Positions 29,638-36,131 of a stretch of DNA of 46,559 nt are shown here, piece by piece. Each line of letters begins with the position of its first letter. Positions within the stretch are counted from its first letter, which is position 1. Both the position numbers and the translations under genes were made by a program. The notes beneath the pieces were generated by a model that saw only the letters and a list, made by a program, of their open reading frames with translations, was not told the origin of the DNA and searched no databases. Source of the DNA: Bacteroidota bacterium (GTDB lineage Bacteria > Bacteroidota > Ignavibacteria > Kapaibacteriales > UBA2268). Location of the stretch: positions 1-46,559 of the forward strand of contig JAFRQN010000154.1 of the NCBI GenBank assembly GCA_017428585.1, written 5' to 3'.

Positions 29638-30258
29638 ATGAGTTTAGTATTAGATAAAATAAAAGGCAGTATGCTTTTATTGCCTATAACGTCAGTTCGT
29701 TTTTATTCTGATCCAGTAATTTCAAATAACACAATAACAGGCTACACAAATGATTTAACTATTTTGTATCCAGAACAGGAGAGCAGTTATTTATTTACGA
29801 AATTAGGCAATAAAAACAGCAAAGGAACATACGTAAATTATGGTTGGAATTTTGAATTGATTGTTTACGTTCCTAATAACAATTTTTATAAAGATACAAC
29901 AGAAGCTCAATTAAATGGTTTAGGTTATGATATGTTATTAGAATTAAAAAAACTAATGAATTATGGTAGTTGTTTATTAGATTTAAGACTTGGCAATGTT
30001 CCTGATGGTTCTCAATCATTAGTTGATGAGACTTTGCCTATGGGCGACCAAGAAGCGCCAACAAATATAAACTTTTCATTGCTTAGAAAAATTATAATTA
30101 AAAATGGTTCTATTGGTTATGATGTAGAACATACTGAAATACGTCCGCGCACAAAAATAACATATAATGCTTTTATTACAGATTTAACTAATAGTAATGA
30201 AATAGAATACACAGGCACGAAATATGTAGACAATGAAGAGCCAGAAGAAACTACATAA
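29638..30258 (+). CDS. Hypothetical tail-module protein
   Basis: The track start is 29620. The ATG at 29638 (MSLVLDK) follows GGGAGG and lies 2 nt after the upstream stop. Confidence 0.5.
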   Translation: MSLVLDKIKGSMLLLPITSVRFYSDPVISNNTITGYTNDLTILYPEQESSYLFTKLGNKNSKGTYVNYGWNFELIVYVPNNNFYKDTTEAQLNGLGYDMLLELKKLMNYGSCLLDLRLGNVPDGSQSLVDETLPMGDQEAPTNINFSLLRKIIIKNGSIGYDVEHTEIRPRTKITYNAFITDLTNSNEIEYTGTKYVDNEEPEETT

Positions 30259-30494
30259 AAATACGTTTTATTTTTGATTTAAGAGCATTTTGTTATTTAT
30301 CTAATAAAATATATCAAAAAAGAATAAAAATTGAATGTATGCAAAATAAACAATAAATTTTTACGTTTTAGAATAATTGCAACAATAATAACAAAAATTT
30401 TTAATAAAATTAAAAAATAATTTTATTTTTAATTAAAAAATTGTTATTTTTGTATATAACTAATTAACAATTTTTATTAACTATACTAAAAAAT

Positions 30495-30517
30495 CCTGCC
30501 GCGTTTGGAGGGGTAGG
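30495..30517 (+). ncRNA. Conserved-loop hairpin HP1
   Basis: CCTGCC-GCGTTTGGAGG-GGTAGG. Confidence 0.6.
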
Positions 30518-30762
30518 CTGAATAAACATTTAATTTTAATAATCTGTTTTTTTTGATTTATATTTCATCAACATTGAATGCTTAGAATAAAATAGCTTAA
30601 ATTCTTTTTAGGTTATGAAAGTATTTTGAAGTAATATGAAAGATATTAGAAAAGACTAAGAGATGTTTATAAGGAAGATTTTTAATAACAATAGTAAATT
30701 AGTTGTGTGTGTGAAAATAGTCAGGCGCAGTGAGTATCTGCGCCTATTATTCCACAAAATAT

Positions 30763-30837
30763 CGCGGGGTGGTGTAATTGGTAAACACGCGAGGCTGTGT
30801 ACCTTGTTAGCTGGGAGTTCGAGTCTCCCCCCTGCTA
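30763..30837 (+). tRNA. tRNA-like gene 1, anticodon position GTG (His-like), atypical
   Basis: Hand-folded cloverleaf: D arm GTGT/ACAC with a GG loop, anticodon stem CGAGG/CCTTG with loop CTGTGTA, T arm GGAG-TTCGAGT-CTCCC. C1xT72 mismatch, T at position 37, no encoded CCA. Confidence 0.55.
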
Positions 30838-30873
30838 CGAATTTAATTAATGATTGTTTAATAAATATAAAAT

Positions 30874-30896
30874 CCTGCCGTGTGCGGAGGGGCAGG
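30874..30896 (+). ncRNA. Conserved-loop hairpin HP2
   Basis: CCTGCC-GTGTGCGGAGG-GGCAGG. Confidence 0.6.
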
Positions 30897-31038
30897 TGTA
30901 TTGAGTTATAATAACATTAATTATTTTTTTTAGACATAAATAATCAAATAATTCTTCAATTTAATATCATACTAATTTTAGTATGATATTTTTTTTATTC
31001 TGCAATAAGAATTATTTTGTAATTAATTAAAAAAGTAT

Positions 31039-31261
31039 TATTTTTGTATTGTCTTTAGACATTAGGTTTGATAGGTTTAATGTAACGACAACACAACATG
31101 ATAAGGAGAATGCTTAGGAGGGTCGGCGTTCTCCTTTATTTATTTATAACATAGCGGGGTGATGTAATTGGTAAACATAGCAGGGTGGTTGCTTGCTTAT
31201 TGTAGGTTCGAATCCTTCCTCCGCAACAAAAAATTTACTTTGTATTTTAATAAAAAAGAAT
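31039..31261 (+). ncRNA. Noncoding unit b carrying tRNA-like 2
   Basis: -7 box at 31039-31046, stem AAGGAGAA/TTCTCCTT at 31103-31136, then the tRNA-like gene. No hairpin terminator before the next promoter. Confidence 0.4.
31153..31226 (+). tRNA. tRNA-like gene 2, anticodon position GGT (Thr-like), atypical
   Basis: Same 5' half as gene 1 (GCGGGGTGnTGTAATTGGTAAACA). Anticodon stem GCAGG/CTTGC with loop GTGGTTG, T loop TTCGAAT. A1xA72 mismatch, one T-stem mismatch, T at position 37. Confidence 0.5.
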
Positions 31262-31425
31262 TAATTTTGTAGTATAATTAAATTATGTTTAACTAATTAA
31301 AATCGCGCCGTGTTTGGAGGGGCGCGTGGTTTGGTTTGACATACTATCTACCTATAAAAATTTATTATAAAATTAACTTTTTGTTTTAATTAAATATCAT
31401 ACTATTCCAGTATGATATTTTTTTA
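31262..31425 (+). ncRNA. Noncoding unit c with hairpin HP3
   Basis: -7 box at 31262-31269, GTTTAACTAATTAA box, HP3, and terminator at 31394-31425. Confidence 0.55.
31304..31326 (+). ncRNA. Conserved-loop hairpin HP3
   Basis: CGCGCC-GTGTTTGGAGG-GGCGCG. Confidence 0.6.
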
Positions 31426-31466
31426 TTATAGAATAAGAATTATTTTGTAATTAATTAAAAATGTAT

Positions 31467-31643
31467 TATTTTTGTATTACAATTAATTTAATATGTTTAA
31501 CTAACTAAATTCGTACCGTGTTTGGAGGGGTACGTGTGTTGGTGTTTGGATAAACATAACTACCTGTTAATATTATTTAGTTTTATTAAATTAGAATTTT
31601 CTTGAATTTCCTTAAGATGGATAAATAATTTATCCATCTTTTT
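31467..31643 (+). ncRNA. Noncoding unit d with hairpin HP4
   Basis: -7 box at 31467-31474, GTTTAACTAACTAA box, HP4, and terminator at 31615-31643. Confidence 0.55.
31512..31534 (+). ncRNA. Conserved-loop hairpin HP4
   Basis: CGTACC-GTGTTTGGAGG-GGTACG. Confidence 0.6.
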
Positions 31644-31797
31644 ATATTAGAATTCCCAAAACAAAAGGTGCAGGTGGTTGCTCTTCTGCATCTATAAAAT
31701 ATAATTTTTCATATTTATAATAAAATTAAATTATTAAAAATAGTATTAGACTTATTTTTATTCTTTAGCAATAGATTAAAATTCTATTGCTTTTTTT
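31644..31797 (+). ncRNA. Noncoding segment e with an anticodon-arm-like hairpin
   Basis: TGCAG-GTGGTTGCTCTT-CTGCA at ~31670-31691, and terminator AGCAATAGA/TCTATTGCT+T6 at 31767-31797. No canonical promoter seen. Confidence 0.3.
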
Positions 31798-31822
31798 ATT
31801 TTGTTATTGATTAAAAATATAT

Positions 31823-32023
31823 TATTTTTGTATATAAATTTTTTCGTAATTAACAATTTTTTTAACTATTAATTTCCTTGTAATAGGGACTTCTTACAGA
31901 AGAGTTATACGTAGAAAAAGAATATAACTAATGGTAGAATTAAAGTGTTAAAGAAAAATTTTGTAATGTAGTAAAAAAAAGAAAAAAGGGATGTTAGAGA
32001 GGTTTTATGCCTCTCTTTTTTTT
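31823..32023 (+). ncRNA. Noncoding unit f
   Basis: -7 box at 31823-31830 and terminator AGAGAGG/CCTCTCT+T7 at 31996-32023. Only ORFs of 6 codons or fewer. Confidence 0.45.
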
Positions 32024-32066
32024 CTAAAAATTTACAAAAAAATTTTATTTTTAATTAAAAAATTAT

Positions 32067-32478
32067 TATTTTTGTAATATATTTGATTTTCAAATTGACT
32101 GATTCATAAGAGGTGGTTGTTACAGCTCGCCGCCTCTTATACTGGCAATAATTATTATTTATTGTATAGATTATAACTTAAAAATTGCGTTCCTTTTTTA
32201 TTTAAGTTATCATTGTTTACAGCTCACTTTATGAAATTTTTTGGCTGGTTCATGTGTGAGTTAATGAAAAAGAAAAAGAGACAAGTTTTTTTTGTGTTTC
32301 CTCTTATTTAGCTTGTCTCTTATCTTTTAACTAAGACAGCAATATTTTTTTAATTCTTATATAATCTTTAAATAATTTTTTCATATACTTTTAACATTAT
32401 TTGTTTATAAAAATTTATTTTTTGATATACTTTTGATTTTTTCATGGATAACAGAACCTATTTAGGTTCTGTTTTTTT
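32067..32478 (+). ncRNA. Noncoding unit g (or micropeptide unit)
   Basis: -7 box at 32067-32074, 11-bp stem at 32106-32140, 10-bp stem at 32276-32321, terminator at 32451-32478. Contains a 26-codon ORF at 32231-32311. Confidence 0.4.
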
Positions 32479-32523
32479 ATGCAATAAGAATAAAAATTAT
32501 TTTGTTTTTAATTAAAATTTTTG

Positions 32524-32776
32524 TATTTTTGTATTACAATTAATTAACATTTTTTTTTACAAATAATTTTTTATATTTCTATTAAATCTATACATAAATA
32601 TATTTTAATATGTTATTTGATATCCTGCTTTATCTATTACTCAGTGCCAATTAAATAAGTTTATCATAATAGAAAAGCAAAAAATGTTATTAAATGTAGT
32701 TAATATATATAAAATCATCCAGAATAATAATGAGCAACAGAATTATTAAAAAAATTTAATAATTCTGTTTTTTTAT
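32524..32776 (+). ncRNA. Noncoding unit h
   Basis: -7 box at 32524-32531 and a 12-bp-stem terminator at 32736-32776. Only ORFs of 14-21 codons. Confidence 0.4.
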
Positions 32777-32791
32777 TTGCTCCAGAATTTA

Positions 32792-32901
32792 TATTTTTGT
32801 ACAATAATTAACTATTTATTCAAAATTTCAATAAAATGGTTTAATTTTTGATTCAGTATTATTTATATATCTTCAAGCAGGATGCCTCTCCTGCTTTTTT
32901 T
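32792..32901 (+). ncRNA. Noncoding unit i (~95 nt)
   Basis: -7 box at 32792-32799 and terminator AGCAGGA/TCCTGCT+T6 at 32876-32901. The only ATG opens a 2-codon ORF. Confidence 0.5.
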
Positions 32902-32935
32902 ATATAAAAAGTTTTGTTATTTGAAATAAAATTAT

Positions 32936-33094
32936 TATTTTTGTATATAATTATTTTTGTTTAACTAATTAAATAATAATTGCTTATCAATTTTATTTAT
33001 TTAACTCTCAAATTATATAAAGACTTAAACATAAATAATTGCAAGTGTTCGGCTAATTGGAAATTTAGGGAAGCAAAAACTTCCCTTTTTTTTT
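32936..33094 (+). ncRNA. Noncoding unit j (~140 nt)
   Basis: Tandem -7 boxes at 32936-32943 and 32952-32959, GTTTAACTAATTAA box, terminator GGGAAG/CTTCCC+T9 at 33068-33094. No ATG in the unit. Confidence 0.5.
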
Positions 33095-33114
33095 GATATT
33101 TATTAAAAATTTAT

Positions 33115-33193
33115 TATTTTTGTTTACAAGATATAGATTCATTGAAGTAAAAAGGAAAATTTGAAGCAATAATTTTATATTATTGCTTTTTTT
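33115..33193 (+). ncRNA. Noncoding unit k (~65 nt)
   Basis: -7 box at 33115-33122 and terminator AGCAATAAT/ATTATTGCT+T6 at 33165-33193. No ATG. Confidence 0.5.
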
Positions 33194-33218
33194 ATTTGTA
33201 AATAATCCAGGAAATATA

Positions 33219-33301
33219 TATTTTTGTACTGCCTTTATAAAAATATAAATTTTAATAGCTCTGATAAGATGGGACGGTATGCCTAACCGTCCCAATTTTT
33301 T
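33219..33301 (+). ncRNA. Noncoding unit l (~70 nt)
   Basis: -7 box at 33219-33226 and hairpin GGGACGG/CCGTCCC followed by AATTTTTT at 33271-33301. Confidence 0.45.
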
Positions 33302-33316
33302 AAAATTTTCGGCTTC

Positions 33317-33625
33317 CCAAGACCGAGACTGGTTCGCGGCACTCGTGGAAACCATCAGTCGTATGCATCCGATACGAGACTACTTAAAAGCGCCGGGTCT
33401 ATACCTTCTGCATTACACGTCTATACTCGATACTACTAAAAAACATCGAATTTTTTGGGTCTCCAAGACCGAGACCGGTTCGCGGCGAGCGCGGTTTCAT
33501 CCCCCTTCTCATCCGAGACTCGGTGTTACCCGAGACTTCTTAAAAGCGCGGTTCTTGACTTCCTGCAATACTAAGATTTACTGGATACTACTAAAAAGCA
33601 TCGAAAAAATGCCAAAAAATCCGAA
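33317..33625. repeat. GC-rich island A: two tandem ~150-bp repeat units plus a partial third
   Basis: CCAAGACCGAGACyGGTTCGCGGC at 33317 and 33463. GAGACTwCTTAAAAGC at 33376, 33532 and 33703. GATACTACTAAAAArCATCGAA at 33429 and 33584. Confidence 0.7.
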
Positions 33626-33640
33626 AAAATGGGTCAAAAA
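33604..33640. other. Four helically phased A-tracts (predicted intrinsic DNA bend)
   Basis: A6 at 33604, 33614 and 33624, and A5 at 33636, giving a 10-12 bp period. Confidence 0.6.
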
Positions 33641-33650
33641 TTGTGGTTGT

Positions 33651-33670
33651 CCCCCCCCCGCACCCCCCCC
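33651..33670. repeat. Paired homopolymers C9-GCA-C8
   Basis: CCCCCCCCCGCACCCCCCCC. Slippage-prone, with G-quadruplex / i-motif potential. Confidence 0.7.
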
Positions 33671-33785
33671 AAGTTTTTTCAAAAAAAGTCCCGCTGTTGC
33701 CCGAGACTTCTTAAAAGCAGTATTTCTATACTCTCTGCGAAACTATACTTAAAAATAAGACTTTGCTATACTTAAAGAATATACC

Positions 33786-33814
33786 AAAAAAAAAGCACGC
33801 TCAATGCGTGCTTT
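33786..33814 (-). terminator. Terminator of cysteine-ladder gene 3
   Basis: AAAGCACGC-tcaat-GCGTGCTTT with a T-run on the minus strand. Confidence 0.7.
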
Positions 33815-33830
33815 GACCAAAGAAAAAATA

Positions 33831-34376
33831 CTACAAATATTTGTAAACTAATCTGCGTTTAATTAATTTAGAATCATACAGGTTGATTTTTCTTGCTCTG
33901 TTATAATTTAGCAGGCTGTCAATATAAGCGTTGCTGCACATTTCGGCGTTATTGCAGAAATTGCAGTTATTACAGCAGTAACAATTAGTGCAGGCTTCGC
34001 ATTTATAGGACATTTCGCAATTAAGGCAATGTTCGCATTTGATGCAGTTATAAATATTTACGCAGTCGTAATTGCCGTAAGATTTAGAGGCGTTGTTGCA
34101 TTTTATGCAATCTATGCAATTAATACAGGACATACAGGACGCACAGCATTCACAATAGGAGCATTTGACGCAGTCTGTGCAGTTTTTACAATTATAACAA
34201 TTAAAGCAATGAAAATTATTTTGATTTAGGTTTTCGTATTCTTCAAGGGTTAAATTTGCCCAATTTAGGAAATCTTGCGTTACGCCGTTTATTATATATT
34301 TCCAGTTCCATTTTTTATATTCTTTAAATTCGTTATAATCTTTAAATAATAGAGTTTTGATTTTATATTTTAACAT
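33831..34376 (-). CDS. Cysteine-ladder (C-x2-C)n repeat protein, paralog 3
   Basis: 181 aa. Motif INGVTQDFL...LEEY, then 27 Cys. Leader is ATAGGAATTAAAAATT-ATG. Confidence 0.8.
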   Translation of the reverse strand: MLKYKIKTLLFKDYNEFKEYKKWNWKYIINGVTQDFLNWANLTLEEYENLNQNNFHCFNCYNCKNCTDCVKCSYCECCASCMSCINCIDCIKCNNASKSYGNYDCVNIYNCIKCEHCLNCEMSYKCEACTNCYCCNNCNFCNNAEMCSNAYIDSLLNYNRARKINLYDSKLIKRRLVYKYL

Positions 34377-34399: not shown

Positions 34400-34435
34400 T
34401 AATAAAAGATACAGGAGAGGCTAATCCTCTCCTGT
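34400..34435 (-). terminator. Hairpin overlapping the stop of cysteine-ladder gene 4
   Basis: ACAGGAGAGG-ctaat-CCTCTCCTGT, followed on the minus strand by a T-rich stretch. Confidence 0.5.
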
Positions 34436-34918
34436 TAATATATAATGGTATAAATCGACCATTTTATTTTTTAATTTAATATTAGAAATTTCGTTTCCAT
34501 ATTTTACATTTGTGCAATTTTTGCTTTTGCGGAGCGTTTCGCATTTTTCGCATTTTGTGCAGTCGTCGCAGTCTTCACAATCGGTGCAAAAACTCGCTCT
34601 TTTACAATAGAAGCATCTAATATCAAAGAAGCAGTAATGACAACCTATGCAGTCATCGCAATCTTGGCAATTAAAGCAATTATGGCAAGATTGGCAATTT
34701 ATGCAATCTTCGCAACCCATGCAGTTCCAGCAATAGTAGTTTGTTTCGTTGAACTTTTGGTAAAGTTCGAAAGAGAGGAGATAATTTTTTAAGAAAAGCT
34801 CGGAGCATCCGTTTATTTTTTCGTTCGGATGATATTCAAGGTAATTTTGAAAATCCTCATAGCTTTCAAAAATTTTAGTTAAAAATTTTTGTTCAGAATT
34901 GTTTTGTTTTTTCAGCAT
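34421..34918 (-). CDS. Cysteine-ladder (C-x2-C)n repeat protein, paralog 4
   Basis: The track ORF begins at a TTG inside the promoter. The ATG at 34918 (MLKKQNN) follows ATAGGAATTAAAATT. Motif INGCSELFL, then 22 Cys. Confidence 0.75.
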   Translation of the reverse strand: MLKKQNNSEQKFLTKIFESYEDFQNYLEYHPNEKINGCSELFLKNYLLSFELYQKFNETNYYCWNCMGCEDCINCQSCHNCFNCQDCDDCIGCHYCFFDIRCFYCKRASFCTDCEDCDDCTKCEKCETLRKSKNCTNVKYGNEISNIKLKNKMVDLYHYILTGED

Positions 34919-35652: not shown

Positions 35653-36000
35653 ATGCAAAGTACAGAAAAGAGATTTATTTGTTTAAGACGTGGGATTTTT
35701 ACACGCAAGCCTTATATAGTAACAGAAAAAGCCACTCTAAGATTAAACAACACATTAAAAGGAGATTTCCCTATGGTTTTTAATTTAGCATTATTAAAGA
35801 CAAAAGATGCTTTTTATTTTGAGCAATATATAAAAAGCAAATTAAAGGGAATAAACGAATACGATTACCCAGTAAATTACATAATACGATTATTTATGGA
35901 ATGTTGGGATATGTCAAGTGATGGCGAATTAAAGATAGGAGATAAAAAAGCAGTTAACAAACCAAGATATACAGTAGAGGAGGGTTTAGTATGTTTATAA
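35653..36000 (+). CDS. Hypothetical protein
   Basis: 115-aa ORF with leader ATAGGAATTAAAACA-ATG. Confidence 0.55.
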   Translation: MQSTEKRFICLRRGIFTRKPYIVTEKATLRLNNTLKGDFPMVFNLALLKTKDAFYFEQYIKSKLKGINEYDYPVNYIIRLFMECWDMSSDGELKIGDKKAVNKPRYTVEEGLVCL

Positions 36001-36107
36001 TAAAATTATTATCTATATTTTGGTTTACGGTATTAGGACCCGTAATAGTAGGCGGGATAATAGGAGCGTATATAAAACGCAACGAAGAAGAGCCTATACA
36101 AAAATAA
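35991..36107 (+). CDS. 38-aa single-pass membrane micropeptide
   Basis: GGAGGG upstream. Peptide MFIIKLLSIFWFTVLGPVIVGGIIGAYIKRNEEEPIQK. Overlaps the previous stop. Confidence 0.4.
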   Translation: MFIIKLLSIFWFTVLGPVIVGGIIGAYIKRNEEEPIQK

Positions 36108-36131
36108 TTTGTATAATAGAAAATTTATTAT

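Follow-up and report, generated by a model that had tools for sequence, protein, structure and literature searches.

The 46,559-nucleotide (nt) contig JAFRQN010000154.1 of a Bacteroidota assembly (GCA_017428585.1), referred to here in its full length as the window, carries on its + strand four copies, HP1 to HP4, of a short hairpin that displays GGAGG in its loop. Together with copies from related contigs, these hairpins form a real family of elements at the RNA level, backed by covariation and new to Rfam, whose structure is established and whose function is inferred. The reading that we prefer, at a probability of about 35%, is that the hairpin may be a non-coding mimic of the Shine–Dalgarno (SD) sequence which binds the 3′ end of 16S rRNA, either after the fashion of the STAB-SD mRNA stabilisers or as a decoy.

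The positions and sequences given for the four hairpins in the initial annotation are correct: HP1 at 30495–30517 (CCTGCC-GCGTTTGGAGG-GGTAGG), HP2 at 30874–30896 (CCTGCC-GTGTGCGGAGG-GGCAGG), HP3 at 31304–31326 (CGCGCC-GTGTTTGGAGG-GGCGCG) and HP4 at 31512–31534 (CGTACC-GTGTTTGGAGG-GGTACG). The core CCGYGTNNGGAGGGG, with up to two mismatches allowed, is matched four times in the window against 0.04 matches expected, and none of 100 shuffled sequences reaches four. Scanning the window with a covariance model revealed no fifth copy, the next best match scoring 18.5 bits (E = 0.3). Fold prediction gives each hairpin a stem of six base pairs (bp) and a loop of 11 nt on the + strand. In Rfam, only two tRNAs pass the gathering score, and at E-values up to 10 nothing overlaps the hairpins in a search of positions 30200–33900.

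Relatives of the window were found by exact-protein look-ups of the genes flanking the non-coding array in which the hairpins lie. Two contigs (L130 and L131) represent the same phage, being 99.95% identical with identical hairpins. A second lineage consists of four contigs of 44.6–44.9 kb (L146–L149) whose non-coding region is 86.5% identical to that of the window, and there are two further related fragments, L150 and L155. These three lineages add seven hairpins, bringing the total to 11 copies in four lineages.

Five stem variants occur among them (CCUGCC/GGCAGG, CCUGCC/GGUAGG, CGCGCC/GGCGCG, CGCACC/GGUGCG and CGUACC/GGUACG), and pairing is maintained in 66 of 66 cells, with pairs 2, 3 and 4 of the six changing on both sides. 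Neither the observed pairing nor the covariation score is matched by any of 500 shuffles, and sliding the 3′ arm by one to three columns reduces pairing to 24–61%. Within orthologues, HP3 of L147 reads CGCACC/GGTGCG, a compensated change from G-C to A-U relative to the window; the variable pair of HP1 is G-C in L155 and G·U in the window; and HP4 is identical in L147. The statement that stem changes are fully compensated is slightly overstated in that HP1 has a G·T wobble (CCTGCC/GGTAGG). This wobble tells the two strands apart: it is a pair on the + strand alone, turning into C·A on the − strand, where HP1 does not fold. The hairpin module, taken with its flanks, folds at least as stably on the + strand as on the − strand in nine of the 11 copies, two of these by only 0.1–0.5 kcal/mol, and the fold energies summed over the 11 modules are −192 and −158 kcal/mol, respectively. 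The proposal of the initial annotation that selection acts on RNA structure is therefore supported, and the G·U pair, the strand asymmetry in folding and the promoters and terminators on the same strand point to + strand RNA. The stem substitutions amount to only four or five events, so that the constancy of the stem ends and flanks is weak evidence of constraint.

The loop is less uniform than was first described. It had been called an invariant 11-nt sequence, whereas three of the 11 positions vary within the window and the relatives differ in the 5′ half; the only fixed part is (U/C)GGAGG. The loops read GCGUUU-, GUGUGC-, GUGUUU-, GAUGUUU-, GUAGAUU- and ACGUUU-GGAGG, the 5′ half being a spacer of 6–7 nt that varies in both sequence and length, and the HP2 orthologues of L147 and L155 have a 12-nt loop, GATGTTTGGAGG. 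Outside the loop, the outer C-G pair, the closing CC/GG pairs, a 5′ AAAWTC and, for the most part, a 3′ UG are constant over the copies. Base-pairing with the 16S 3′ end fits this pattern, since the SD core is fixed in an open loop while the other half of the loop is free to vary. Ensemble predictions for the whole putative transcripts leave GGAGG unpaired, at positions of about +40 to +50.

The window has seven GGAGGG on its + strand and none on its − strand. Five of the seven lie in hairpin loops, those of HP1–HP4 and of a further stem at 31103–31136, and the remaining two are SD sequences of genes: an open reading frame (ORF) of 38 amino acids (aa) has AGGAGGG 7 nt upstream of its ATG, and a methyltransferase gene has GGAGGG 5 nt upstream of its own. 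The loops thus display the sequence that the phage encoded by the window uses as its strongest SD. The stem at 31103–31136 (AAGGAGAA.../...TTCTCCTT, with AGGAGGG in its loop), which the initial annotation had rightly placed upstream of the second tRNA gene, lies between a promoter at 31016–31046 and tRNA-Thr and is identical in L147. Its stem is unrelated to those of HP1–HP4, and this fifth hairpin to present a GGAGGG in its loop supports the SD mimic.

SD-like tetramers are found at −18 to −4 in 21 of 48 phage genes (44%), compared with four of 48 further upstream and one to six of 48 inside genes. From this enrichment the ribosomes of the host evidently read SD sequences, and the initial remark that the host phylum rarely uses them does not apply to this phage. 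The SD-like motifs stand alongside promoters of Bacteroidota type, in a phylum reported to be without SD-led initiation. Among the three functions first suggested for the hairpin, pairing of GGAGG with the anti-SD tail is the one most favoured by the data. The 38-aa ORF (35992–36108, +), whose AGGAGGG is a perfect SD, encodes a strongly hydrophobic peptide, and gene calling picked it out in related contigs too.

As we envisage it, each hairpin would be a + strand RNA stem-loop with a 6-bp G+C clamp, set in most copies on a weak A/U-rich lower stem, and its role would be to hold the 11–12-nt loop open and keep GGAGG(G) single-stranded. The GGAGG of the loop would pair with CCUCC at the 3′ end of 16S rRNA, so that the RNA would bind the 30S subunit with no conserved product being translated. 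Two outcomes may be considered: the small RNAs and the tRNA precursor that carry the hairpins could be guarded against decay from the 5′ end, or SD-competent ribosomes could be titrated and redirected. The first has a precedent in STAB-SD, a 5′-proximal SD that binds 30S subunits without starting translation and blocks 5′–3′ decay (PMC4113751). With the STAB-SD or polypurine stabilisers of Bacillus thuringiensis cry3A and the B. subtilis phage SP82, the hairpins share a GGAGG near the 5′ end with no conserved ORF (PMC4113751; references in PMC3997798), the SD-like site being 5′-proximal and predicted to be accessible at about +40 to +50, and followed by no conserved frame. STAB-SD is nevertheless a linear element of mRNA leaders in Firmicutes, whereas the element described here is a covarying hairpin loop, present in several copies on non-coding RNAs and on a tRNA precursor, in a phage whose promoters are of Bacteroidota type.

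The family has a narrow distribution. A covariance model built from nine copies finds the known copies (61–79 bits) and otherwise only a damaged HP3 in L146, which has lost its 5′ arm and scores 30.5 bits against 71.5. Exact and degenerate motif scans of IMG/VR returned either nothing or G+C-rich chance matches lacking complementary stems, and two motif scans of JGI metagenomes gave zero matches and then two chance matches. A scan of GTDB genomes with a loose pattern (at least 120 matches) is no evidence of absence; among the matches listed all were G+C-rich, and the genome G+C was at least 0.58 where three stem pairs were present. Among GenBank phages there was no DNA match to the 3.5-kb non-coding region and no match to a 964-aa protein of the phage, and the large terminase (TerL) and major capsid protein found distant relatives only, at below 37% identity. 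The 964-, 212- and 238-aa proteins used as anchors have close homologues only (72–97% identical), so that the clade at hand is shallow, and within the collections searched the hairpin family is confined to this one shallow clade of uncultivated phages. A triple match in a metagenome-assembled genome of Acidimicrobiia (L035; JAXLRM010000004.1, 6592–6742) was rejected as an unrelated G+C-rich tandem or CRISPR-like repeat; it comprises three copies, 64 nt apart, that contain CCGGCCCGCGTTTGGAGGGGGTCGCATCC(G/C)CAAACGCGG.

Several observations weigh against the SD mimic. Complementarity to the canonical anti-SD does not exceed 5 nt (UGGAGGG compared with an ideal AGGAGGU), and the case for transcription comes solely from sequence matches to promoters and terminators. 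Anti-SD pairing has no need of the elements that stay constant outside the loop, namely the closing CC/GG pairs, outer C-G pair and 5′ AAAWTC, which would fit a protein site equally well. Eight of the 11 copies have a GUG at a distance of 5 nt from GGAGG, on its 3′ side, and real but non-conserved mini-ORFs are thus possible. In the shallow clade, with a non-coding identity of at least 86%, the conservation of GGAGG is of limited weight. Copies are, moreover, gained and lost between close relatives: HP1 is absent from L147, where a clean 25-nt gap marks the orthologous site, is present once in the window and in L155, and is duplicated in tandem in L150. Individual copies accordingly look dispensable or redundant. 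Finally, a passage of PMC7797042 describes the typical Bacteroidota anti-SD as sequestered, which would count against the mimic if the host is typical in this respect.

The setting of the hairpins bears on these possibilities. The window encodes a tailed phage of about 46.6 kb, A/T-rich with a G+C content of 25–38%, and approximates to its whole genome, since public assemblies hold identical contigs of 39.7 and 46.6 kb. The phage genes recognised include those for a tape-measure protein, portal, large terminase, Mu-type head protease and major head protein, together with Erf, SSB, VRR-NUC and two methyltransferases. Matches to TTTG-N17-22-TAnnTTTG, the promoter pattern of Bacteroidota, number 27 in the window where 5.3 are expected. 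Positions 30259–33830 (3.5 kb) are without a credible gene and hold about ten promoters of the Bacteroidota type and about nine terminator-like hairpins, every one on the + strand, with 12 terminator-like sites against 1.7 expected, as well as two tRNA genes; judged from these signals the stretch consists of short non-coding transcription units set in an array. The units are paralogous to one another at 75–77% identity, so the array grew by duplication. Between 30259 and 33300 we count about ten promoter-to-terminator units of 100–300 nt each, devoid of ORFs, 86.5% identical in the related lineage and with many segments wholly identical; for a phage, small RNAs packed at such density would be unusual.

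The two tRNA-like genes of the initial annotation are called by both ARAGORN and Rfam, as tRNA-His(GTG) at 30763–30838 (47.5 bits; conserved in L146–L149 and L155) and tRNA-Thr(GGT) at 31153–31227 (38.3 bits; with an unusual U at position 37), and it is the former that HP1 and HP2 flank. Unit A has its promoter at 30421–30452, with a −7 element TATTTTTG at 30445–30452 and a −33 element that is TTTT/TTTA here and TTTG in L147. HP1 belongs to the 5′ leader of the transcript that carries tRNA-His, starting 42 nt beyond the −7 element, and HP2 starts 36 nt after the tRNA, presumably in its 3′ trailer because no promoter lies between them; the unit ends in a terminator-like hairpin with a U-run at 30964–30996, a paralogue of that at 31394–31424. 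Unit C has a promoter at 31239–31269 (TTTG-N19-TAATTTTG), with HP3 starting 34 nt after the −7 element, and ends in the terminator-like hairpin and U-run at 31394–31424, giving a predicted HP3 small RNA of about 150 nt. Unit D follows the same plan, with a promoter at 31444–31474 (TTTG-N19-TATTTTTG), HP4 starting 37 nt after the −7 element, a terminator at 31614–31645 and a predicted HP4 small RNA of about 165 nt. The promoter first placed some 35–45 nt upstream of HP3 and HP4 is therefore found at 34–42 nt, measured from the −7 element, and upstream of HP1 as well.

The hairpins were also considered as intrinsic terminators and rejected on both strands. On the + strand no U-run follows the stem, and the sole terminator-scan match at the hairpins (31309–31326) is in a shifted register with a 4-nt loop. 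On the − strand A/U-rich tails are present, but the loop is of 11 nt, HP1 has its C·A mismatch and does not fold, and there is no − strand gene upstream within 2 kb.

In L146–L149 the 5′ half of tRNA-Thr has been deleted, between ACATAGC repeats (L147, 11350–11410), leaving a remnant whose T arm and anticodon arm are still identical, as is the hairpin upstream of it with GGAGGG in its loop. Two other G+C-clamped hairpins, with loops of 12–13 nt, at 31667–31692 and 32107–32139, share GGTGGTTG with the anticodon arm of tRNA-Thr (31181–31197, anticodon GGT) and are 100% conserved in L147; to judge from this shared sequence they may be elements derived from an anticodon arm.

A conserved box, GTTTAACTAAYTAA, precedes HP3 and HP4 and led the initial annotation to liken the layout to the boxA and boxB of a nut site. 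Exact copies stand beside these two hairpins and a third, without a hairpin, at 32959; with up to two mismatches there are seven matches against 5.65 expected, which is not above chance. A related A/T-rich segment lies 5′ of all 11 hairpin copies. From fold predictions we consider the box to be probably structural, forming the 5′ side of a lower stem that is weak: in folds of the full predicted transcripts and of 101-nt segments it pairs with a G/U-rich tract and ACAUA 3′ of the hairpin, so that the module becomes a hairpin of about 60 nt that is A/U-rich in its lower part. For HP3, the box at 31285–31303 (ATGTTTAACTAATTAAAAT) is predicted to pair with 31327–31343 (TGGTTTGGTTTGACATA, G/U-rich and beginning with UGG; z = −2.3 relative to shuffled 3′ flanks), and as the pairs are A/U-rich and mostly invariant the support is weak. 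For HP4, the box at 31493–31511 (ATGTTTAACTAACTAAATT) has its predicted partner at 31535–31558 (z = −2.26), and an A-to-G change in the L147 box keeps a U·G pair. For HP2, pairing of the box at 30856–30873 (GTTTAATAAATATAAAAT) with 30897–30923 is predicted, with z = −3.1 for the 101-nt segment, z = −1.17 when the flank alone is shuffled (13% of shuffles folding as well) and z = −3.3 for the L155 orthologue. The A/T-rich segment 5′ of HP1 (30476–30494, ATTAACTATACTAAAAAAT) forms no convincing lower stem (z = +1.3). Against shuffled 3′ flanks, the gain from the lower stem is significant for HP3, HP4 and the HP2 of L155, marginal for most other copies and absent for HP1 and the copy L150-a. A consensus fold of all copies contains the apical stem only; the lower stem appears in single-sequence folds and in the consensus of the HP3/HP4 subfamily, whose ten lower-stem pairs hold almost no informative variation.

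The likeness to the nut sites of phage lambda and the put sites of HK022, namely an A/U-rich box and, within a few nucleotides of it, a short hairpin whose loop is conserved, promoter-proximal, in several copies and with terminators after it, is accordingly a resemblance only, and the box is unlikely to be a boxA. It reads (A)UGUUUAAC(U/A)AA, lacks GCUC and is predicted to be paired in HP2, HP3 and HP4; with the boxA consensus of Escherichia coli and lambda, GCUCUUUA..., which serves NusB/NusE as a single-stranded site, it shares only UUUAAC(A/U)A. The lambda boxB has a stem of about 5 bp and a GNRA-like pentaloop bound by the arginine-rich N protein, as against a 6-bp stem, a loop of 11–12 nt and no recognised N-like or NusG-like protein here, nor is there a + strand gene downstream for about 3.4 kb.

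A dedicated RNA-binding protein, of the phage or the host, that reads the closing pairs and UGGAGG, the hairpin being its binding site or a processing site, is possible, if doubtful. It would account for the elements of stem and flank that stay constant over 11 copies, for the promoter-proximal position of three of the four window copies, each followed by a terminator, and for the bracketing of tRNA-His by HP1 and HP2. The loop variant GATGTTTGGAGG, shared by two paralogues of L147, may mean co-evolution with a partner but could equally be due to gene conversion. In Bacteroides, promoter-proximal hairpins of nascent RNA, together with the adjacent leader, load NusG paralogues (PMC11685472). 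The opsX arrangement, with its UpxY paralogues of NusG, shares this promoter-proximal hairpin and leader with the units described here (PMC11685472); its hairpin, however, lies ahead of the ops DNA element and acts for long capsule operons that have a cognate UpxY, whereas here there is neither a NusG paralogue nor an operon. In the ORFs scanned, no N-like, NusG-like, KH, RRM, Cas6-like or other RNA-binding domain was seen; many ORFs are unannotated. Variation in the length and 5′ half of the loop would be unusual for a site recognised by shape, and the box seems to be base-paired rather than linear. Antitermination, in particular, would have no obvious beneficiary: from 31534 to about 34939, some 3.4 kb, the + strand is free of protein genes, and the next two genes converge on the region.

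A bolder version of the SD mimic, in which decoy RNAs made by the phage engage the anti-SD tail of 30S subunits in a host that its promoters suggest to be of Bacteroidota, where that tail is normally sequestered, appears rather unlikely. Such decoys would capture or reprogramme ribosomes towards the phage's own, unusually SD-rich mRNAs, and the same hairpins might also bait a CRISPR nuclease of the Cas5c type through a stem resembling a type I-C repeat.

This last likeness also invites an explanation of its own. The suggestion that the hairpin is a decoy for an RNA-guided host system has gained a lead in the stem of HP3, and the hairpins could be RNA anti-CRISPRs (Racr, solitary repeat units) that mimic the stem and cleavage site of an I-C-like repeat and bait Cas5c or Cascade; we regard this as unlikely. 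HP3 with its flanks, TCGCGCC...GGGCGCGTGG, has the arms and the first three 3′ nt of the Pseudomonas aeruginosa I-C repeat GTCGCGCCCCGCACGGGCGCGTGGATTGAAAC (PMC7761518), so that the stem, the 5′ TC and the 3′ UGG are identical, and its L147 orthologue, TCGCACC...GGGGTGCGTGG, corresponds in the same way to the Bifidobacterium longum repeat GTCGCACCCCACTGGGGTGCGTGGATTGAAAT (PMC5626976). Cas5c reads the base of the stem and U22-G23-G24 3′ of the cut and needs neither the loop nor the 5′ overhang (PMC8524198). The middle stem pairs covary and the outer ones are fixed, as in three cited I-C repeats. Viral solitary repeats typically follow a promoter, within about 250 bp of it and away from cas genes, and here promoters lie 34–42 nt upstream of promoter-proximal hairpins in a phage with no cas-like ORF among those scanned; changing copy numbers and diversifying stems are what an arms race might produce. 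The hairpins have, however, no ATTGAAAY, the 3′ handle that is conserved above all else in I-C repeats, the stem has 6 bp instead of seven and the loop 11–12 nt instead of 3–5, and the invariant GGAGG has no role. Only HP3, one of four paralogues, combines UGG with a stem of the I-C type, and no published repeat was found that joins the arms of HP4 or of HP1 and HP2 to the I-C handle. Moreover, the likeness was seen post hoc, and the repeats are those of unrelated bacteria. Resemblances to Cas13b repeats, to the stem of the I-F repeat (CTGCC/GGCAG) and to helix 45 of 16S rRNA were considered as well and are given no weight here.

It is less probable still that HP3 and HP4 are trans-acting small RNAs, with the loop or the box as a seed for host mRNAs containing CCUCC and with HP1 and HP2 as leftovers of duplication. 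Their units do have the expected form, with a promoter, a 5′ stem-loop, an A/U-rich linker and a terminator in about 150–165 nt, and they are paralogous. They share paralogy, sigma-A promoters, terminators and a conserved short element with the multicopy FopS/GibS family of Bacteroides, one member of which resides in a phage (PMC11697453). The seed of FopS, however, lies in the single-stranded 5′ end and not in a hairpin loop, and the hairpins match neither its sequence nor, at E-values up to 10, any Rfam family including FopS. An invariant seed of 5 nt is short, and complementary sites in the phage genome are not above chance, at 18 against 12.9 expected, none of them outside the hairpins better than three mismatches. 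Hfq and ProQ are absent in Bacteroidota (PMC7366714). The sponge RNAs CsrB and RsmZ likewise carry multiple hairpins per locus with GGA in the loop; the hairpins described here present UGGAGG and not A(N)GGA, one to a transcript, and the phage showed no CsrA-like ORF. To our knowledge CsrA is not known in Bacteroidota.

We consider it very unlikely that the hairpins are translation initiation regions in which the SD lies in the loop and GUG at the stem base, such that the act of translation matters and the peptide does not, for instance because it opens the lower stem or is coupled to the terminator downstream. The spacing GGAGG-N5-GUG in eight of 11 copies resembles that of the two genuine phage genes with GGAGGG 5–7 nt from ATG. 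The lengths and frames of the mini-ORFs nevertheless differ between orthologues (14 and four codons for HP3; 23 and eight for HP4; two, seven and four for HP2), the HP1 lineage has CUG or UAA in place of GUG, and the G of GUG is buried in the stem. A peptide-coding role was rejected, as orthologues keep neither frame nor length.

Least probable of all is a DNA-level element, a cruciform or single-strand hairpin for replication, packaging or recombination near 33295–33790: inverted repeats in a non-coding region that also has G+C-rich direct repeats and phased A-tracts, and a copy number that shifts by indels, would suit it, but the G·T wobble of HP1 and the many lower-stem G·U pairs point to a strand-specific structure, all copies point the same way and keep a set spacing from promoters on their own strand, the arms vary around a conserved asymmetric centre, the opposite of a dimeric DNA-binding site, and the hairpins lie 1.8–2.8 kb from the G+C-rich block.

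That block, at 33295–33790 in a genome of 28% G+C, contains a direct repeat in two copies, each of about 150 nt and 69% identical to the other, along with CCGAGACTTCTTAAAAGC in three copies, phased A6 tracts and CCCCCCCCGCACCCCCCCC; L147 is without one repeat unit. The block is a candidate origin or packaging site, and the 157-aa ORF that crosses it, identical in 14 contigs, is probably spurious. Immediately to the right of the RNA array, and converging on it, are two − strand genes (33831–34376 and 34421–34918) for paralogous proteins of 181 and 165 aa in which, over long stretches, every third residue is Cys (C-x-x-C-x-x-C...), some 25–30 Cys each. Neither protein has a match in Pfam or PHROG, and a sequence search of the PDB gave nothing meaningful.

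Phage non-coding RNAs are poorly charted, and those of Bacteroidota phages hardly at all. The hairpin offers a core of 23–24 nt, backed by covariation, with a candidate ligand in the 16S 3′ end or the 30S subunit. Even if neither ribosome binding nor the I-C likeness holds, it is a clean new RNA motif, limited to a small clade of uncultivated phages. If the likeness to I-C repeats is real, RNA anti-CRISPRs would extend to a new host group and in a new hybrid design. If the hairpins bind ribosomes, they would link phage small RNAs to the question of when and how the ribosomes of Bacteroidota use their anti-SD.

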